Source: Escherichia coli
GTDB taxonomy: Bacteria > Pseudomonadota > Gammaproteobacteria > Enterobacterales > Enterobacteriaceae
Strand: one strand, 5' to 3'
NCBI RefSeq assembly: GCF_003334765.1
Contig: NZ_QOWT01000003.1
DNA length: 64,000 nucleotides
A model generated the notes under the pieces. That model was given only the letters and a program-made list of their open reading frames with translations, was not told the origin of the DNA and ran no database searches. The first letter of the stretch is position 1. Every line of letters starts with the position of its first letter. Both the position numbers and the translations under genes were made by a program. This document shows positions 12,898-20,690 of the stretch, piece after piece.

Positions 12898-13794
12898 ATG
12901 GACATTTTTATTTCGAAAAAGATGCGCAATTTCATTTTATTAGCGCAAACCAATAATATTGCCCGGGCGGCAGAAAAAATCCATATGACGGCTTCGCCAT
13001 TTGGTAAAAGCATTGCCGCGCTGGAAGAACAAATTGGCTATACGCTATTTACCCGCAAAGATAATAATATCAGCCTCAATAAAGCCGGACAGGAACTGTA
13101 TCAAAAACTGTTCCCGGTTTATCAACGGCTTTCTGCGATTGATAATGAAATCCATAACTCAGGACGTCGTTCACGAGAAATTGTGATTGGCATAGATAAT
13201 ACTTATCCGACAATTATTTTCGATCAGTTGATTAGTCTCGGAGATAAGTATGAAGGCGTGACCGCCCAGCCAGTTGAGTTCAGCGAAAACGGCGTTATCG
13301 ATAATCTTTTTGACCGCCAGTTAGATTTTATTATCTCCCCACAGCATGTATCTGCACGAGTTCAGGAACTGGAAAACCTGACTATCAGTGAACTACCACC
13401 GCTGCGATTAGGCTTTCTCGTTTCTCGCCGTTATGAAGAGCGTCAAGAGCAAGAGCTGCTTCAGGAGCTGCCCTGGCTACAAATGCGCTTTCAGAACCGG
13501 GCCAACTTCGAAGCAATGATTGATGCGAATATGCGACCTTGTGGGATCAATCCAACCATTATTTATCGTCCCTACAGTTTTATGGCCAAAATCAGCGCCG
13601 TGGAGCGCGGACATTTTCTGACGGTGATCCCGCATTTTGCCTGGCGACTGGTGAATCCGGCAACGCTGAAATATTTTGATGCACCGCACAGGCCGATGTA
13701 TATGCAGGAATATCTTTATTCAATCAGAAATCATCGTTATACCGCCACGATGCTTCAGCATATTGCTGAAGATCGTGACGGGACGAGTCATTAA
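12898..13794 (+). CDS. ygfI: LysR-family transcriptional regulator
   Basis: N-terminal HTH of LysR type (...ARAAEKIHMTASPFGKSIAALEEQIGY...); start taken at MDIFISKK. Its stop overlaps the convergent scpC stop. Confidence 0.8.
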   Translation: MDIFISKKMRNFILLAQTNNIARAAEKIHMTASPFGKSIAALEEQIGYTLFTRKDNNISLNKAGQELYQKLFPVYQRLSAIDNEIHNSGRRSREIVIGIDNTYPTIIFDQLISLGDKYEGVTAQPVEFSENGVIDNLFDRQLDFIISPQHVSARVQELENLTISELPPLRLGFLVSRRYEERQEQELLQELPWLQMRFQNRANFEAMIDANMRPCGINPTIIYRPYSFMAKISAVERGHFLTVIPHFAWRLVNPATLKYFDAPHRPMYMQEYLYSIRNHRYTATMLQHIAEDRDGTSH

Positions 13795-15269
13795 CCCAGC
13801 ATCGAGCCGGTTGCAATTAAATTACGGTGTAAGTCGAAGACGTGGCTAAGATCGTGGTGAATATGTCCGCCAGGCGCATTTTCCAGATAGCGATGCAGAT
13901 AATCCCGATACATAGGATGTGCACAATTATCAATGATAGTGCGGGCGCGTTGAAGCGGGGAAAGACCGCGCAGATCGGCGATCCCTTGTTCGGTGATGAT
14001 CACTTTGACGCTGTGTTCGCTGTGATCAACATGGCTGCACATTGGCACGACGGTTGAGATCTTGCCTTCTTTAGCAATCGACGGGGCCATAAAGATCGAC
14101 AGATACGCGTTGCGTTCAAAATCACCGCTGCCGCCGATGCCGTTCATCAGATCGACCCCGGCTACGTGTGTTGAGTTGGCATGCCCGTAAATATCAAACT
14201 CCAGGCCGACGTTCAGAGCGATGACGCCCAGACGACGGATGATTTCCGGGTTATTGGAAATCTCCTGCGGACGCAACACAATGCGGCTGGCAAAGTAATC
14301 CATATTGTCGTAAATCTTGCGCAGGGAATCGGCCGAGATTGTCAGGCTGGAGGCGCTGGCCCCGCTGATTTTGCCGGTTTCCAGTAAATGCACCACCGAT
14401 TCCTGTAGCACTTCCGAATACATCATAAACGGAGGAATTACCGGGTTTTCCCCCAGACGCGCCATTACCGCATTATTGATATTGCCCACGCCACTTTGCA
14501 GCGGCAGAAATTCCGGCGGAATACGCCCATGCGCCATTTCCTGCAATAAGAACGTGACCACGTTATCGGCAATCTGCTGGCACATGGGATTTTGCTTATC
14601 CAGCATATTACCGGCGTCGGGCAAGTTGGTTTCCACGACGGCGACAATCTTTTTCGGATCGATTTGCACATAGCGGGTACCGACGCGATCCATTGCATGG
14701 AAGATCGACACGCTATTGCGCCGCGGTGGCGCGCCAGGAATCACAATATCCGCCAGTTCTGCAACGCGCGGATCGTGATAGTGATTGAGTTCAATGATCA
14801 CTTTCTTCGCCCGCAGCAGCCAGGTCGGCGCATTACCGATCCCGCTGGTTAACCAGACTCGACCATCCGGTGCCAGTGCCGATGCTTCAATGACGGCAAC
14901 ATCAATGTCGCCGAAGAAACCGTAATTGACCATTTGCGCCACTTCGCTCAAATGCAGGTCAACGAAACTCACCGCGCCCTGATTGATCTTTTTACGTAAA
15001 CCGGACGATGTTTGATATGGCGCACGCCAGGAAACAGCATCGGCGTCAGAAAGTACATCGTCAGCGGCGGCGCTGATTGACGCACCCGTCAGAAGGCGAA
15101 TTTGATACGGCTTTTTGGCCTCATGCTGTTCGTTAGCTCTGCGGGCAATCGCGGTGGGTAGGGCTTTCGGCGAACCCGCCGGGGTAAAGCCGCTAAATGC
15201 CACCATGTCGTTATGCTGGATAATTTCTGCCGCTTCATTGGCGGTCATCCTTGTCCACTGAGTTTCCAT
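13791..15269 (-). CDS. scpC: Propionyl-CoA:succinate CoA transferase
   Basis: 492 aa acetyl-CoA hydrolase/transferase family; last gene of the scpA-argK-scpB-scpC operon. Confidence 0.9.
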   Translation of the reverse strand: METQWTRMTANEAAEIIQHNDMVAFSGFTPAGSPKALPTAIARRANEQHEAKKPYQIRLLTGASISAAADDVLSDADAVSWRAPYQTSSGLRKKINQGAVSFVDLHLSEVAQMVNYGFFGDIDVAVIEASALAPDGRVWLTSGIGNAPTWLLRAKKVIIELNHYHDPRVAELADIVIPGAPPRRNSVSIFHAMDRVGTRYVQIDPKKIVAVVETNLPDAGNMLDKQNPMCQQIADNVVTFLLQEMAHGRIPPEFLPLQSGVGNINNAVMARLGENPVIPPFMMYSEVLQESVVHLLETGKISGASASSLTISADSLRKIYDNMDYFASRIVLRPQEISNNPEIIRRLGVIALNVGLEFDIYGHANSTHVAGVDLMNGIGGSGDFERNAYLSIFMAPSIAKEGKISTVVPMCSHVDHSEHSVKVIITEQGIADLRGLSPLQRARTIIDNCAHPMYRDYLHRYLENAPGGHIHHDLSHVFDLHRNLIATGSMLG

Positions 15270-15292
15270 TTTTACTCCTTCGTTCGCAGGGA

Positions 15293-16078
15293 TTAATGAC
15301 CAACGAAATTAGGTTTACGTTTTTCGAGGAAAGCGTTCATCCCTTCCTGGTAATCTTCGCTGTCATACACCGCGCGGCGCATCCCCTGAATACGTTCAAA
15401 TTCATCGGAGTTCATGGTGTGTGCTTCGCCCAGTACACGCAGCTCTTCTTTGATAACGGCAATGGCTAACGGCGCTTTCTCAGAGATGTGGTGCGCCATT
15501 TGTAAGGTGAAATCTTCCAGTTCTTCCACTTCCACAACATGGTTGAGGATGCCGACAGCCAGCGCGCGCTGGGCGGTGATTGGCGAAGCGGTAAAAATCA
15601 GCTCTTTGACAATGTGGAAGCCCGCGTCGCGGGTCAGGTTGTGAATGCCGACCAGGTTATACGGGACGCCGAGGTTTACAGGCGTCATTGAGAAGGTTGA
15701 GGTACTGGCGGCGATGATCAGATCGGAACTCATGATCATTTCAAATGCGCCACCCCAAACACTACCTTCCACCATCGAAATGATCGGTTTCGGGAATTTT
15801 TGGATCATGCGGGTGATTTGACGCAATGGATCATCATAGGAGAGCGGATCGCGACCGCCAGACGGCAGTTCGTGAATATCGTGACCTGCGGAGAAGACTT
15901 TGGATCCACTCGGTGCGCGCAAAATGATACAGCGAATTTCCGGCCGGTTGAGATCGCTTAACGCCTGCATAAGATCATCAATAAAGACTTTACTTAAGGC
16001 ATTAAGTTTTCGGCCATAGTTAAACTCAATGACCGCCACTTTGTTGATAGTGACAACGTTAACATACTGATAAGACAT
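15293..16078 (-). CDS. scpB: Methylmalonyl-CoA decarboxylase (crotonase fold)
   Basis: MSYQYVNVVTINKVAVIEFNYGRKLNAL... enoyl-CoA hydratase superfamily, 261 aa. Confidence 0.9.
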   Translation of the reverse strand: MSYQYVNVVTINKVAVIEFNYGRKLNALSKVFIDDLMQALSDLNRPEIRCIILRAPSGSKVFSAGHDIHELPSGGRDPLSYDDPLRQITRMIQKFPKPIISMVEGSVWGGAFEMIMSSDLIIAASTSTFSMTPVNLGVPYNLVGIHNLTRDAGFHIVKELIFTASPITAQRALAVGILNHVVEVEELEDFTLQMAHHISEKAPLAIAVIKEELRVLGEAHTMNSDEFERIQGMRRAVYDSEDYQEGMNAFLEKRKPNFVGH

Positions 16079-16088
16079 AAAAATTCCT

Positions 16089-17084
16089 TTAATCAAAATA
16101 TTGCGTCTGGATAAATTCACTGAGCTGCCGCAGGCCGGTGCGCGGTGAGAGCGTATTGTTTTTGACCGCTAAAAGCGTCTGGCGGTAATAGCGATCGAAA
16201 TCTTCATTCGCGAACAGGTGATTCAGTACTTCTTCTTCGGTCTGCTTACGCAGCCATTCCACCGATTGTTGTTGCCGCACTTGTTGTAAACGACCACTGG
16301 CAGTTAGCGCGGTTTTGAAGTCGATGATGGCGTGCCAGATCTCATCGATTCCACGTTTTTCCAGTGCGCTACAAGTCAGAACCCGTGGCTGCCATTCGTC
16401 GTATTTACGTCGCAGAATATGCAGGGCACTCTCGTACATATGCCGGGCAATGGCGACATTGGTATGGTTATCGCCATCGTCTTTGTTGATAACGATCAGA
16501 TCAGCCACTTCCATCAGCCCTTTTTTAATGCCCTGCAGATCATCGCCGCCACCGGCAATTTGCAACGAGATAAAACAGTCCACCATGCGGGCGACTTCTG
16601 TTTCCGACTGCCCGACGCCAACCGTTTCGACAATCACTACGTCATAACCCGCTGCTTCGCATAACAGCATTAATTCCCGCGCTCGCTGACTGGCACCGCC
16701 CAGATGACCGGAGGATGGTACCGGGCGAATAAACGCCGCTTCGGCACGCGCCAGGTCATTCATGCGGGTTTTATCCCCGAGAATGCTACCGCCAGTGACC
16801 GGGCTGCTGGGATCGACCGCAATAACCGCGACCTTTAATCCCTCTCGAATCAACAACATGCCAAAGGCCTCAAGAAAGGTACTTTTCCCCGCGCCGGGGG
16901 TGCCGGTAACGCCCAGTCGCAGGGTGTTACCGCAGTACGGCATAATGGCATCAAGCAGCTGCGTACTTAGTGCCTGATGACGCGGGTGACGGCTTTCCAC
17001 CAGCGTCATGGCCTGGGCGAGTGTGGCACGCTCACCCTGACGTAAGCGGCGAATACTTTCTGCCAGCGTGGCTTCATTAATCAT
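16089..17084 (-). CDS. argK: MeaB/ArgK-type G-protein chaperone of methylmalonyl-CoA mutase
   Basis: 331 aa with P-loop GTPGAGKST; 8-bp overlap with scpA. Confidence 0.9.
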
Positions 17085-19221
17085 GATGCTGGCTTATCAG
17101 ATTCAGTACGTCGCGCACACTGTCGAGCATAGGTGTACCTGGACCATAAATCGCCGCCACGCCGCGCTCTTGCAGGAAGGCGTAATCCTGCGGCGGAATG
17201 ACGCCACCCGCGACCACGCAGATATCTTCGCGTCCCCATTTTTTCAGCGCTTCGACCAGTTCCGGGATCAGCGTTTTATGACCGGCAGCCAGTGAGGATG
17301 CGCCCACTACGTGAACGTCGTTTTCTACGGCTAGGCGGGCGATCTCTTCAGGTGTAGAGAACATCGGGCTTAAATCTACGTCGAAACCGAGATCGGAATA
17401 GGCGCTGGCGATCACTTTCGCGCCGCGATCGTGTCCATCCTGGCCCATCTTAGCGATCAGAATGCGCGGGCGACGACCATTGTCGGCAAGGAACTGCTCC
17501 GTTTGCGCAACAATGGCATCGAACTCGGAGGCCGATTTCTCAGACTGATGATAGCTTTGCGCAATCACGCCGGTAACACACTGGCTTGGCACCAGATAAC
17601 GGTCGAAAGCGACTTCCAGCGCATCGGAAATTTCACCCAGGGTGGCGCGAACGCGAGCGGCATTAACAGCGGCAGCCAGCAGGTTTTCGTTATGCTGTGC
17701 GGCGTGAGTCAGGGCGTTCAACGCGGCGGTTACGGCGGCATCATCACGGGTGGCGCGAATGCGTTCCAGCGAAGCAATTTGCTCGTTACGCACCATCACG
17801 TTGTCGATCTCAAGTACATCGGTTTCGTCTTCGTGATCCAGTTTGTACTTGTTGACACCAACGATGACACGCTTGCCCTGGTCGATCAGCGACTGTTCGC
17901 GCGCTGAGGCCTCTTCGATCATTCGTTTTGGCAGACCTGCTTCGATCGCTTTCGCCATGCCACCGGCTTCGTCGATCTGTTGGATAATAGCTCTGGCTTG
18001 TTTGACGATTTGATCGGTCAGCGACTCAATGTAATAGGATCCGGCCAGTGGATCGACGGTGCGGCAGAGTTCTGATTCTTCCTGGATGATGATCTGGGTG
18101 TTGCGGGCAATGCGTGCTGAGAAATCGGTAGGCAAACCAAGCGCTTCGTCAAAGGCGTTGGTATGCAGTGACTGAGTACCGCCCAGCGTCGCAGCCAGCG
18201 CTTCAATGGTGGTGCGGATAACGTTGTTATACGGATCCTGTTCAGTCAGGCTCCAGCCTGAGGTCTGGCAGTGGGTACGCAGCGCCAGTGATTTCGGGTC
18301 CTGTGCGCCAAATCCACTGACCGCTTCGCTCCATAAATAACGTGCCGCACGCAACATGGCGACGTTCATAAACAGATCCATGCCGATGCCGAAGAAGAAC
18401 GACAGGCGAGGAGCGAAGTCATCAATTTTCAGTCCGGCAGAGATTGCTGCTTTGATGTACTCAATCCCATCAGCGAGCGTAAATGCTACCTGCTGCACGC
18501 AGTTGGCACCCGCTTCACCCATGTGGTAACCGCTGATACTGATGGTATTAAATCGCGGCATGTTGCCGGAACACCAGGCGATGATGTCGGCGATAATGCG
18601 CATTGACGGTTTTGGTGGGTAAATATAGGTGTTGCGGCAGAGGTACTCTTTGAGAATATCGTTTTGAATGGTGCCGGTCAGTTTATCAGGTGTAACACCT
18701 TGCTCTTCTGCGGCGACGATATAAAACGCCAGTACTGGTAGCACTGCGCCATTCATGGTCATCGAAACCGACATTTTATCCAGCGGGATCTGGTCGAACA
18801 GGACTTTCATATCTTCCACGGTGTCGATAGCGACGCCCGCTTTGCCGACGTCGCCCGCCACGCGCGGGTTATCGGAGTCGTAGCCACGGTGGGTGGCAAG
18901 GTCAAACGCAACGGAAAGACCTTTTTGCCCGGCGGCCAGGTTACGGCGATAAAAAGCGTTGGACTCTTTTGCTGTTGAAAAACCAGCATACTGACGGATG
19001 GTCCACGGTTGGGCGGTATACATAGTGGCACGCGGGCCACGAACGTAGGGCGGCAAACCAGGAAGGGTACCTGTCACCTCCAGATTATCGAGATCGGCTT
19101 CGGTATACAGCGGCTTGATGGCGATCCCTTCCGCGGTTTGATGAACCAGCGAGTCGACAGTTTTCTCCCGACGGCTCAATTCCTTGTTGGCAAGCTGTTG
19201 CCACTCCTGCACGTTAGACAT
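17077..19221 (-). CDS. scpA: Methylmalonyl-CoA mutase (B12-dependent)
   Basis: 714 aa starting [14 protein letters not shown]...; mutase TIM-barrel plus C-terminal B12-binding domain. The track ORF extends 7 codons upstream. Confidence 0.9.
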
Positions 19222-19424
19222 TATTTGCTCCGTAAAACGCAATCAAAATGAGGGTATTTGCGCCTACGGTGAGCTTTTTACGTGGGTTTGTCGCCAGCAA
19301 AAAAAATGCATTCAGACGTCGTTTTTTGCCGCCTGAGATTTGTCTATTTTGTGATGTGATTCAAGGAATACAAAAAGAAGTGAGGACAACGCCTGATATG
19401 TGCTATCAGGCATTATTTGATGGA

Positions 19425-20318
19425 TTAATCCTGACGAAGGACTTTGTGACCATAATCGAGTAACGCATCAGTGACTTTACGCATCATGCGGCTTTCAGGA
19501 GCAAAGCGGTGCCAGTAGAGCATCCGTCGTTGAAATAGCCCAGGCGTTAAGTCAATCAGTTCACCGCTGGCCAGCTCTTTCTCGATTTGCAGGTGCGGGA
19601 TCATACAGCAGGTGGTGCCCTGGCGAGCAAGTTGTACGAACGCTTCTGAAGAATTAACGATATGGCAGGGCACGCTGCCTGGAGGCAGATCGAAGTTTTG
19701 CTGCAAAAAGGCCTGGTGCATATCGTCAAGATGGTCAAACGCGACCACTGGCGCTTTCAGTAATGCCGAACGCGTTACGCCGTTAGGGAAATATTTTTCG
19801 GCAAAGGGTTTTGAGCTGACGAACAGATAGTCGAGCGCACCAAGTTTATCGACAAGACAACTCGGCAGCGCCTGATGTTGAATACTCACCGCGCCGACCA
19901 CTTCGCCGCGGCGCAGACGTTCCTGAGTGCGGGTTTCATCTTCTACCTGCAAGTTGAGGCGGATAGGCGAATCAGCCAACACAGGAGCCAGTGCAGGAAG
20001 CAACCACGTCGCCAGACTGTCGGCGTTGACCGCCAGTGAAAGCAGCAGCGGAGTCGAACCGGTTTGTTCATCGCCCAGCCACTCTTCTTCCAGCAACTCC
20101 ACCTGGCGCAGCAGTGCCAGCAGTTTTTGCCCTTGTTCCGTCGGGCGCGGCGGTACGGTACGCACCAACAGCGGCTGCCCGAACATATTTTCCAGTTGCT
20201 TAATGCGCTGTGAGACGGCTGATTGTGTAATGCACAGCTTTTGTGCCGCGCGCTCAAATCCTCGTTCACGTATCACCGCATCCAGTGCCTGTAATGTTCT
20301 GTAGTCCGGGCGTTTCAT
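19425..20318 (-). CDS. argP: LysR-family regulator ArgP (IciA)
   Basis: 297 aa starting [43 protein letters not shown]...; the track ORF has an upstream extension. Confidence 0.9.
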
Positions 20319-20459
20319 TGCTGTTGTCTGCTCCTGGTAAATGCTTTTTCCTGCACTATGACACAATTTTGTGTCAGGTTGCATATACCGAAGCCGTCGG
20401 CGGGTAACATTTGTATCCGTGGTTAAAAGCGCAGCTTAAAAGATCAGGGATTTGCGCTA

Positions 20460-20690
20460 ATGCATTTCGCTCAGCGAGTTCGCGCCCTGGTTGTGTTGAA
20501 TGGCGTGGCGTTATTGCCTCAATTTGCCTGTAAACAGGGGCTTGCGAACGGTGAACTGGTGCGCCTGTTTGCACCGTGGAGCGGCATACCCAGACCGTTG
20601 TATGCTTTATTTGCGGGGCGAAAGGGGATGCCTGCCATTGCGCGATATTTTATGGATGAGTTAACCACGCGGCTTGCCAACGGGGTCTGA
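20460..20690 (+). pseudogene. yqfE: Remnant of a LysR-family regulator (C-terminal fragment only)
   Basis: 76-aa ORF resembling only the extreme C-terminus of a LysR effector domain, with no HTH; corresponds to the known yqfE fragment between argP and rpiA. Confidence 0.55.

Follow-up and report, generated by a model that had tools for sequence, protein, structure and literature searches.

The minus-strand region at 13791-19221 is almost certainly the chromosomal scpA-argK-scpB-scpC operon (sbm-ygfDGH, 'sleeping beauty mutase'), intact and with the same four protein products as in Escherichia coli K-12. The operon is already known, and annotating it here adds nothing new. The modest added value lies at the population level, where the intact state is normal and conserved by selection and one large lineage has lost the genes.

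Layout and identity of the locus

The open reading frame list and direct reading of the sequence place the four scp genes and argP all on the minus strand of the window, by which we mean the whole 64-kb stretch of DNA that was analysed. The scpC stop codon and the scpA start codon form the exact ends of the span 13791-19221. The features of the locus are as follows.

17077-19221, minus strand: scpA (sbm), 714 aa from ATG; predicted adenosylcobalamin-dependent methylmalonyl-CoA mutase, homodimer type as in human
16089-17084, minus strand: argK (ygfD, meaB), 331 aa; predicted G3E-family P-loop GTPase and mutase chaperone
15293-16078, minus strand: scpB (ygfG), 261 aa from ATG; predicted biotin-independent methylmalonyl-CoA decarboxylase, crotonase fold
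13791-15269, minus strand: scpC (ygfH), 492 aa; predicted propionyl-CoA:succinate CoA-transferase
19222-19424, minus strand: argP-scpA spacer, 203 nt, sequence read directly
19425-20318, minus strand: argP (iciA), 297 aa; LysR-type regulator, the upstream neighbour, outside the operon
12898-13794, plus strand: srsR (ygfI); LysR-type regulator convergent with scpC

The scpA stop codon and the argK start codon overlap by 8 nt (ATGATTAA; ...CAT GAT TAA over ATG ATT AAT), which suggests that the two genes may be translationally coupled. The gap between argK and scpB is 10 nt, with AGGA ahead of the scpB ATG, and that between scpB and scpC is 23 nt, with GGAG ahead of the scpC ATG; all three junctions were read directly. 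The gene order scpA, argK, scpB, scpC, the shared orientation, the short or overlapping junctions and the chromosomal place between argP and srsR are those of the known operon, and nothing in the sequence speaks against that identification. The open reading frame list also offered a TTG start for scpA at 19242 and a GTG start for scpB at 16120. Both were rejected because the ATG in each case has a Shine-Dalgarno sequence and gives the RefSeq form, which for scpB is the 261-aa protein that was crystallised.

Each gene product matched its NCBIfam model over the full length and above the curated cut-off, the models being equivalogs for scpA, argK and scpB and the YgfH subfamily for scpC. With E-values of 0 to 1e-146, the gene identification is far beyond chance. 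No internal stop codon occurs in scpA, argK, scpB, scpC or argP. The four products of the operon have the full lengths of the reference proteins, and no decay lesion (frameshift, nonsense codon, truncation or insertion) was found in the four scp genes of this copy. An Rfam scan of the whole window found no RNA inside 13791-19221 and four known RNAs elsewhere.

The initial annotation had named the four genes in this order, described them as intact with an 8-bp argK/scpA overlap, and placed argP next to them on the same strand, without naming it as the minus strand. The NCBIfam matches and the annotation of identical DNA bear out the identities and the order, the lengths and absence of stops bear out intactness, and argP does adjoin the operon, 203 nt upstream of scpA. 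The comparison with orthologs that it had proposed as a check revealed no inactivating lesion, all four products having the same RefSeq protein accessions as in K-12 MG1655. The MG1655 operon (b2917-b2920) shares gene order, junctions and flanks (argP upstream, srsR converging downstream) with the window, and only one nucleotide differs inside the operon, at a third codon position and synonymously; across 11.8 kb the window and the MG1655 record differ by 12 substitutions, and in function nothing differs. The DNA is 100% identical to that of annotated E. coli chromosomes, among them strain M217, whose RefSeq annotation has the same coordinates and no pseudogene flags. The window stems from a strain other than MG1655: its bases 1-662 form an accessory segment that is absent at that place from M217 and from many K-12-type records.

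ScpA matches the equivalog NF006944 over residues 5-713 with 1252 bits against a cut-off of 876, and human MMUT (PDB 8GJU/2XIJ, E 2e-278) aligns with it from one end to the other. The mutase carries the B12 His-ligand motif DGHDRG, of the DxHxxG type, at 595-600, as a full-length enzyme should, and is the RefSeq protein WP_000073223.1 of K-12 MG1655. ArgK matches the MeaB equivalog NF006958 (494 bits, cut-off 329) and PDB 2P67 (residues 1-331, 730 bits); MeaB (2QM7) and human MMAA (2WWW) are homologues. Its P-loop GTPGAGKS at 61-68 and NKDD (NKxD type) at 200 are those of a MeaB-type G3E GTPase. The name 'ArgK' is a historical misnomer, the product being, as judged from these homologies, the MeaB G-protein chaperone of the mutase. 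The initial annotation spoke of four genes for the conversion of succinate to propionate; all four are present, but only three of the products are pathway enzymes.

ScpB is the protein of PDB 1EF8 (100% identity across 261 residues), a crotonase-fold decarboxylase. It matches the equivalog NF008506 (487 bits, cut-off 257) and has H66, G110 and Y140. ScpC falls in the YgfH subfamily of CoA-transferases (TIGR03458, 753 bits, cut-off 659), has PDB 2NVV and AarC (4EU3) as homologues along its whole length, and carries the motifs SEVLQ (285) and GIGGSGDF (377). Among the four E. coli proteins, ScpB and ArgK have known structures themselves, and ScpA and ScpC have close homologues of known structure.

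Conservation, loss and expression signals

A full-length scp locus is kept in 79% of complete E. coli genomes (4279 of 5426). The intact copy had been singled out as worth noting; being the majority state, its intactness is not noteworthy. A further 1114 of the 5426 genomes (20.5%) have one old deletion in common, with a single junction that is also found in CFT073. The CFT073-type allele shares with the window the flanks (argP, spacer and srsR) and the first 927 nt of scpA, but lacks the stretch corresponding to window positions 13945-18202 (4.3 kb), the ends being joined at a 15-nt microhomology, and two further small deletions lie inside its scpA remnant. In the lineage to which CFT073 belongs, the operon disappeared in a single event, this 4.3-kb deletion; a literature search gave no report tying operon loss to phylogroup. 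Sporadic lesions occur in other genomes: IS1 in scpB (H26), a nonsense codon at position 243 of scpA in an O104:H4 genome, and partial deletions of the locus in H20, H25 and H55.

In comparisons with alleles 97.8-98.2% identical, dN/dS is 0.03-0.06 for scpA, argK and scpC and 0 for scpB. The operon is maintained by strong purifying selection in most E. coli and is not decaying, and 'cryptic', the word used in the initial annotation, should not be taken to mean otherwise.

Downstream of argP, a hairpin directly follows the stop codon (about 19416-19386; -17.5 kcal/mol, z -4.2). No U tract adjoins it, and as an intrinsic terminator of argP it would therefore be weak at best. Beyond it lie about 150 nt of highly conserved spacer and then the scpA ribosome-binding site (GGAG). 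The spacer is 99% identical among seven alleles; between the same alleles, dS in the flanking genes is about 0.09. A promoter scan of the minus strand upstream of scpA found no sigma-70-like or consensus site. No clean terminator was found after scpC, whose stop codon overlaps that of srsR in the palindrome TTAA (13791-13794). Both neighbouring regulators are well identified, ArgP by NF002964 (418 bits, cut-off 197) and SrsR by the equivalog NF047842 (635 bits, cut-off 425). SrsR was considered as a regulator of the operon and set aside, as two published studies of SrsR make no mention of the scp genes.

This arrangement could be read as a single transcriptional or regulatory unit of argP and the scp genes, working through transcription that runs on from argP or through control by ArgP, in which case the adjacency would be functional. 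The genes lie on the same strand only 203 nt apart, the spacer is highly conserved, scpA has no recognisable sigma-70 consensus promoter of its own, and the hairpin between them would be a weak terminator at best. It is, however, a stable hairpin located exactly where an argP terminator would sit, and PMC3850637, PMC5512728 and PMC5391575 handle the four genes as a unit without naming ArgP as their regulator. Furthermore, the ArgP protein is identical in every allele examined, including those of genomes without scp genes, where the spacer too is kept unchanged; that both persist after scp loss indicates that argP is independent of the operon, and we consider a joint unit very unlikely. Less probable still is that the operon is a functionless relic, evolving neutrally and intact only for want of time to gather lesions. 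Poor expression in laboratory strains (PMC3850637), the missing promoter match, the loss in a fifth of complete genomes and the scattered lesions would all fit a relic. Neutral evolution is nonetheless hard to reconcile with dN/dS of 0-0.06 over dS up to about 0.1, as low as in ordinary housekeeping genes, with one and the same ScpB protein in four out of five compared alleles, with an upstream spacer conserved beyond synonymous sites, and with full-length retention in most genomes, and we regard this explanation as very improbable.

We tentatively suggest that the operon, though silent in the laboratory, may be used regularly in nature, under purifying selection of housekeeping strength and with a conserved spacer in about 79% of E. 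coli, and that the CFT073-type lineage (1114 genomes) may descend from a single ancient deletion whose remnant is decaying. This proposal is plausible, though it falls somewhat short of being probable. If true, it would imply a lineage-specific difference in gut metabolism, namely in the corrinoid-dependent handling of succinate, methylmalonyl-CoA or propionate, of which a literature search found no description. The contrast between genes that are selected yet 'silent' and their single-event loss in the CFT073 lineage could help to find the role of the pathway in the gut.

Predicted pathway and natural role

The four products, whose K-12 counterparts are identical, would act as a cycle, as judged from their sequence identity to characterised proteins and, for the rest, from the literature. 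ScpA, with adenosylcobalamin or another adenosylcobamide, would convert succinyl-CoA to methylmalonyl-CoA, with ArgK/MeaB as its GTPase chaperone. ScpB would decarboxylate methylmalonyl-CoA to propionyl-CoA, and ScpC would transfer CoA to succinate, so that propionate is set free and succinyl-CoA is formed again. The predicted net reaction is succinate to propionate and CO2. E. coli has only the salvage branch of corrinoid metabolism and no de novo corrinoid synthesis, so the cycle depends on external B12 or cobinamide. No cob or cbi genes are annotated in the 64-kb window, and E. coli makes cobamide only if given cobinamide (PMC6759758).

The function given in the initial annotation, B12-dependent conversion of succinate to propionate, agrees with the literature, which describes a cobalamin-dependent pathway that stays silent in laboratory culture (PMC3850637, PMC5391575, PMC5512728). 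The operon is hardly expressed in the laboratory. The initial annotation, which called the pathway 'conditionally cryptic', put this down to B12 dependence, whereas published work names a promoter that is weak or inactive as the cause (PMC3850637). The operon is a standard E. coli tool for producing propionate, 1-propanol and 3-hydroxyvalerate polymers, and is widely used in metabolic engineering.

Whether the pathway is complete, including whether ScpB can use the (R)-form directly, is disputed. The biochemical description of the operon goes back to Haller et al. (2000), a study cited in both PMC3850637 and PMC5512728; by the account in PMC5512728, they coupled ScpA and ScpB in vitro to convert succinyl-CoA to propionyl-CoA. 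PMC5512728 itself reports that glucose gave no propionate unless a foreign methylmalonyl-CoA epimerase was added, and calls the native pathway incomplete because it has no such enzyme to connect ScpB with the (R)-product that ScpA forms. No epimerase gene is present in the operon or among the genes that RefSeq annotates over the collinear 64 kb, and in this the gene content departs from a self-sufficient methylmalonyl-CoA pathway to propionate such as that of propionibacteria. A literature search on ScpB stereospecificity gave nothing beyond PMC5512728.

A further reading is that the genes are functional and serve in nature something other than succinate to propionate: the methylmalonyl-CoA or propionyl-CoA arising from amino-acid or odd-chain catabolism, or the passage of propionate or methylmalonyl-CoA towards succinyl-CoA. 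Consistent with it are the epimerase requirement on glucose, the finding that the operon raised amino-acid degradation to propionate and permitted isoleucine use (PMC5512728), the reversibility of the mutase and CoA-transferase reactions on general enzymology, and the remark in PMC6759758 that what the E. coli mutase does physiologically 'remains unclear'. The in vitro coupling attributed to Haller et al. (2000) in PMC5512728 nevertheless ran from succinyl-CoA to propionyl-CoA, and several engineering studies in which the operon was activated report propionate or 1-propanol (including PMC3850637 and PMC5391575), measurements that PMC5512728 questions. By general enzymology, moreover, the decarboxylase step is effectively irreversible, which sets the direction. 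We think a different natural role unlikely, though it deserves to be taken seriously, and prefer the conversion of succinate to propionate as the predicted function.

Comparison with other mutase systems

The pairing of ScpA and ArgK, an adenosylcobalamin-dependent mutase with a G3E GTPase, is the same as that of human MMUT-MMAA and of Methylobacterium MCM-MeaB. There the two proteins act in the catabolism of propionate or odd-chain compounds, leading to succinyl-CoA, and the system includes an epimerase; the E. coli pair is tied instead to a decarboxylase and a CoA-transferase, with no epimerase annotated in the window. The Wood-Werkman pathway of Propionibacterium shares with the E. coli operon the B12-dependent step from succinyl-CoA to methylmalonyl-CoA, ScpA matching P. 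shermanii MutB (1REQ) with E 5e-270, and CoA is recycled in both by a propionyl-CoA:succinate CoA-transferase. In the propionibacteria the mutase is the heterodimer MutAB, and an epimerase and a biotin transcarboxylase take part (PMC5512728 and general knowledge); the E. coli mutase ScpA is of the homodimer type, and its decarboxylase partner ScpB has the crotonase fold and is independent of biotin.

Layout and integrity of the scp operon

The window is E. coli chromosome: several complete genomes carry its stretch 13500-20600 with 100% identity, and all of the 5426 complete E. coli genomes compared have a match to it (5426/5426). On the minus strand, a list of open reading frames places four consecutive frames within 13791-19242 and a fifth directly upstream. 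Gene coordinates were transferred to the window from the RefSeq annotation of the identical stretch in E. coli strain M217.

Genes at the locus (RefSeq annotation of M217)
12898-13794, plus strand: srsR (ygfI), LysR-type regulator
13791-15269, minus strand: scpC
15293-16078, minus strand: scpB
16089-17084, minus strand: meaB (argK)
17077-19221, minus strand: scpA
19425-20318, minus strand: argP

The initial annotation, whose span is bounded by the scpC stop and the scpA start, had the genes and extent exact and left the minus strand unstated. The four intact, packed genes that it described, with an 8-bp argK/scpA overlap, are borne out by the reading frames and junctions, as is argP directly upstream on the same strand. 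Read directly from the sequence, the scpA stop and argK start overlap by 8 nt (common bases ATGATTAA), a 10-nt gap containing AGGA separates argK from scpB, one of 23 nt containing GGAG separates scpB from scpC, and 203 nt lie between argP and scpA, both on the minus strand. The overlapping stop and start suggest that mutase and chaperone may be translationally coupled. At the other end, the palindrome TTAA (13791-13794) supplies overlapping stop codons to the convergent scpC and srsR; there is no terminator at this junction, so transcription of each gene must continue antisense into the other.

Inactivating mutations, which the initial annotation had taken to count against intactness, were looked for in the four genes and none was found, and internal stops are absent from all five genes, whose products are of 714 (ScpA), 331 (ArgK), 261 (ScpB), 492 (ScpC) and 297 (ArgP) amino acids. 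The RefSeq accessions of the four Scp proteins are the same in M217 and in the record of the K-12 reference MG1655, from which the window differs at 12 positions across 11.8 kb, just one of them in the operon (17332, a third codon position). All four proteins match NCBIfam models over full model length and above the curated cut-off: ScpA NF006944 (1252 bits, cut-off 876), ArgK the MeaB model NF006958 (494, cut-off 329), ScpB NF008506 (487, cut-off 257) and ScpC the YgfH subfamily model TIGR03458 (753, cut-off 659). The sequence of ScpB is that of 1EF8, the crystallised E. coli decarboxylase (100% identity), a match to 2P67 covers ArgK residues 1-331, and end-to-end alignments were obtained for ScpA with human MMUT and P. 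shermanii MutB and for ScpC with 2NVV and AarC. The motifs DGHDRG (ScpA), GTPGAGKS and NKDD (ArgK), and SEVLQ and GIGGSGDF (ScpC) are present, as are H66, G110 and Y140 of ScpB. From family membership and structural homologues, the argK product is assigned as a MeaB/MMAA-type G-protein chaperone of the mutase, not an arginine kinase.

Constraint and loss among E. coli genomes

With presence defined as 80% coverage or more of the argK-scpB segment (15293-17084), the segment was present in 4279 of 5426 complete genomes (78.9%), partial in 32 and absent from 1115 (20.5%). An intact copy, which had been thought worth noting, is thus not unusual. Essentially one allele makes up the absent class. 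Strain OV24 lacks window positions 13945-18202, and a 15-nt microhomology joins the ends; this 4.3-kb deletion, which starts in the middle of scpA and stops just short of the scpC end, accounts for the absence in both deletion alleles compared (L002 and L009, the latter being CFT073). A 301-nt probe spanning the junction found a whole match in 1114 genomes, about a fifth of the 5426, among them CFT073, whose remnants (scpA 927 nt, scpC 153 nt) are those of the OV24-type allele. Judged from these junctions, a single old deletion seems to have been passed down in a large lineage, that of CFT073, which we take to be phylogroup B2. The remnant shows further decay: scpA has two small extra deletions, and srsR of OV24 is broken by an internal stop.

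Lesions outside the shared deletion are sporadic and independent. In the O104:H4 strain RM8376, scpA has a nonsense codon at position 243 and is flagged as a pseudogene, with argK, scpB and scpC intact, an independent and recent inactivation; IS1 interrupts scpB in one further genome (H26), and three others (H20, H25, H55) have partial deletions of the locus.

Substitutions against alleles 97.8-98.2% identical to the window
scpA: 38-45 synonymous, 4-5 non-synonymous, dN/dS 0.03-0.04
argK: dN/dS 0.04-0.06
scpB: 7-12 synonymous, 0 non-synonymous, dN/dS 0
scpC: dN/dS 0.03-0.06

Across seven alleles, 99% of the argP-scpA spacer is conserved, and the window and strain TCM3e1 differ there at 2 of 203 positions, with dS in the flanking genes at ~0.09. 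The ~150 nt 5' of scpA (19222-19370, minus strand) are nearly invariant among alleles with coding dS of ~0.09, and no sigma-70-like site occurs on the minus strand of the spacer, which together suggest that this segment may hold an unrecognised regulatory element. A stable hairpin (-17.5 kcal/mol, z -4.2) directly follows the argP stop, with no U tract next to it.

Judged by these ratios, the 'cryptic' operon is not decaying, and the low dN/dS with the conserved spacer argues, in a sample of five alleles, that operon and control region may be used in nature. That the operon is a neutral relic is contradicted by the same dN/dS values and is scarcely credible. It is also very unlikely that argP and scp form a functional unit, since argP and the spacer persist unchanged in genomes from which the operon has gone. 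That the operon works in a different physiological direction or on a different substrate is a possibility that we consider doubtful; it concerns the biology, not the annotation. What is mildly new is confined to the pattern among populations, in which most lineages are under strong constraint and that of CFT073 has a single ancient loss; no description of this was found in the literature searched.

Other features of the window

Between argP and rpiA, a 77-aa ORF annotated 'LysR substrate-binding domain' (20460-20690, plus strand) looks like a gene remnant. E. coli strain 1428 has ~3 kb more at this position, with a ferredoxin reductase family gene, a DUF1471 gene, an FMN-dependent azoreductase and a full-length LysR regulator, and given this longer allele the window allele seems to be a deletion derivative. 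In the M217 annotation, collinear here with the window, gcvP and bglA flank the gene ygfF (SDR oxidoreductase; 34169-34912, plus strand); CFT073 has no such annotation at this position, so the two lineages differ in the presence of this gene too. Positions 1-662 have no match in M217 or K-12-type genomes, where tkt stands instead; they are part of an accessory segment that lies upstream of cmtB, carries the annotation 'prohibitin family protein' and is found in 1822 of 5426 genomes, and thus the window is not K-12 itself. Four RNAs that are expected in this chromosomal region of E. coli were matched.

Rfam matches above gathering score
9992-10034, minus strand: ES036
23106-23256, minus strand: SibC antitoxin RNA, opposite the ibsC toxin gene
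23905-24088, minus strand: 6S RNA (ssrS)
37599-37676, minus strand: naRNA4

Pathway and relation to known systems

The locus is the already known 'sleeping beauty mutase' operon, and to our knowledge E. coli has no de novo B12 pathway. Published accounts describe a cycle that depends on cobalamin: ScpA turns succinyl-CoA into methylmalonyl-CoA, ScpB decarboxylates this to propionyl-CoA, and ScpC moves CoA onto succinate and releases propionate; it has been called silent or cryptic, possibly through a weak or inactive promoter (PMC3850637, PMC5391575, PMC5512728). E. coli produces cobamide solely when cobinamide is supplied, and this native cobamide is the one that its mutase binds best (PMC6759758), in agreement with the earlier description of the pathway as conditionally cryptic. 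The four genes said to complete the route from succinate to propionate are present; their sufficiency is disputed in PMC5512728, which argues that the mutase forms (R)-methylmalonyl-CoA, whereas the (S)-form is the reported substrate of decarboxylases of this kind. On the other side of the dispute, that paper itself grants that an in vitro coupling of ScpA and ScpB was achieved by Haller et al. The RefSeq annotation of the collinear 64 kb includes no epimerase gene. With these caveats, the initial observation is confirmed and its interpretation supported.

At sequence level the locus shows all the features that define the K-12 sbm/scp operon, and it is a copy, not a variant. Its first step works as in the MMUT-MMAA and MCM-MeaB pairs. 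In outline it resembles the propionibacterial methylmalonyl-CoA pathway; the differences are that its mutase is of the homodimer type, its decarboxylase is biotin-independent and has a crotonase fold, and an epimerase is lacking.
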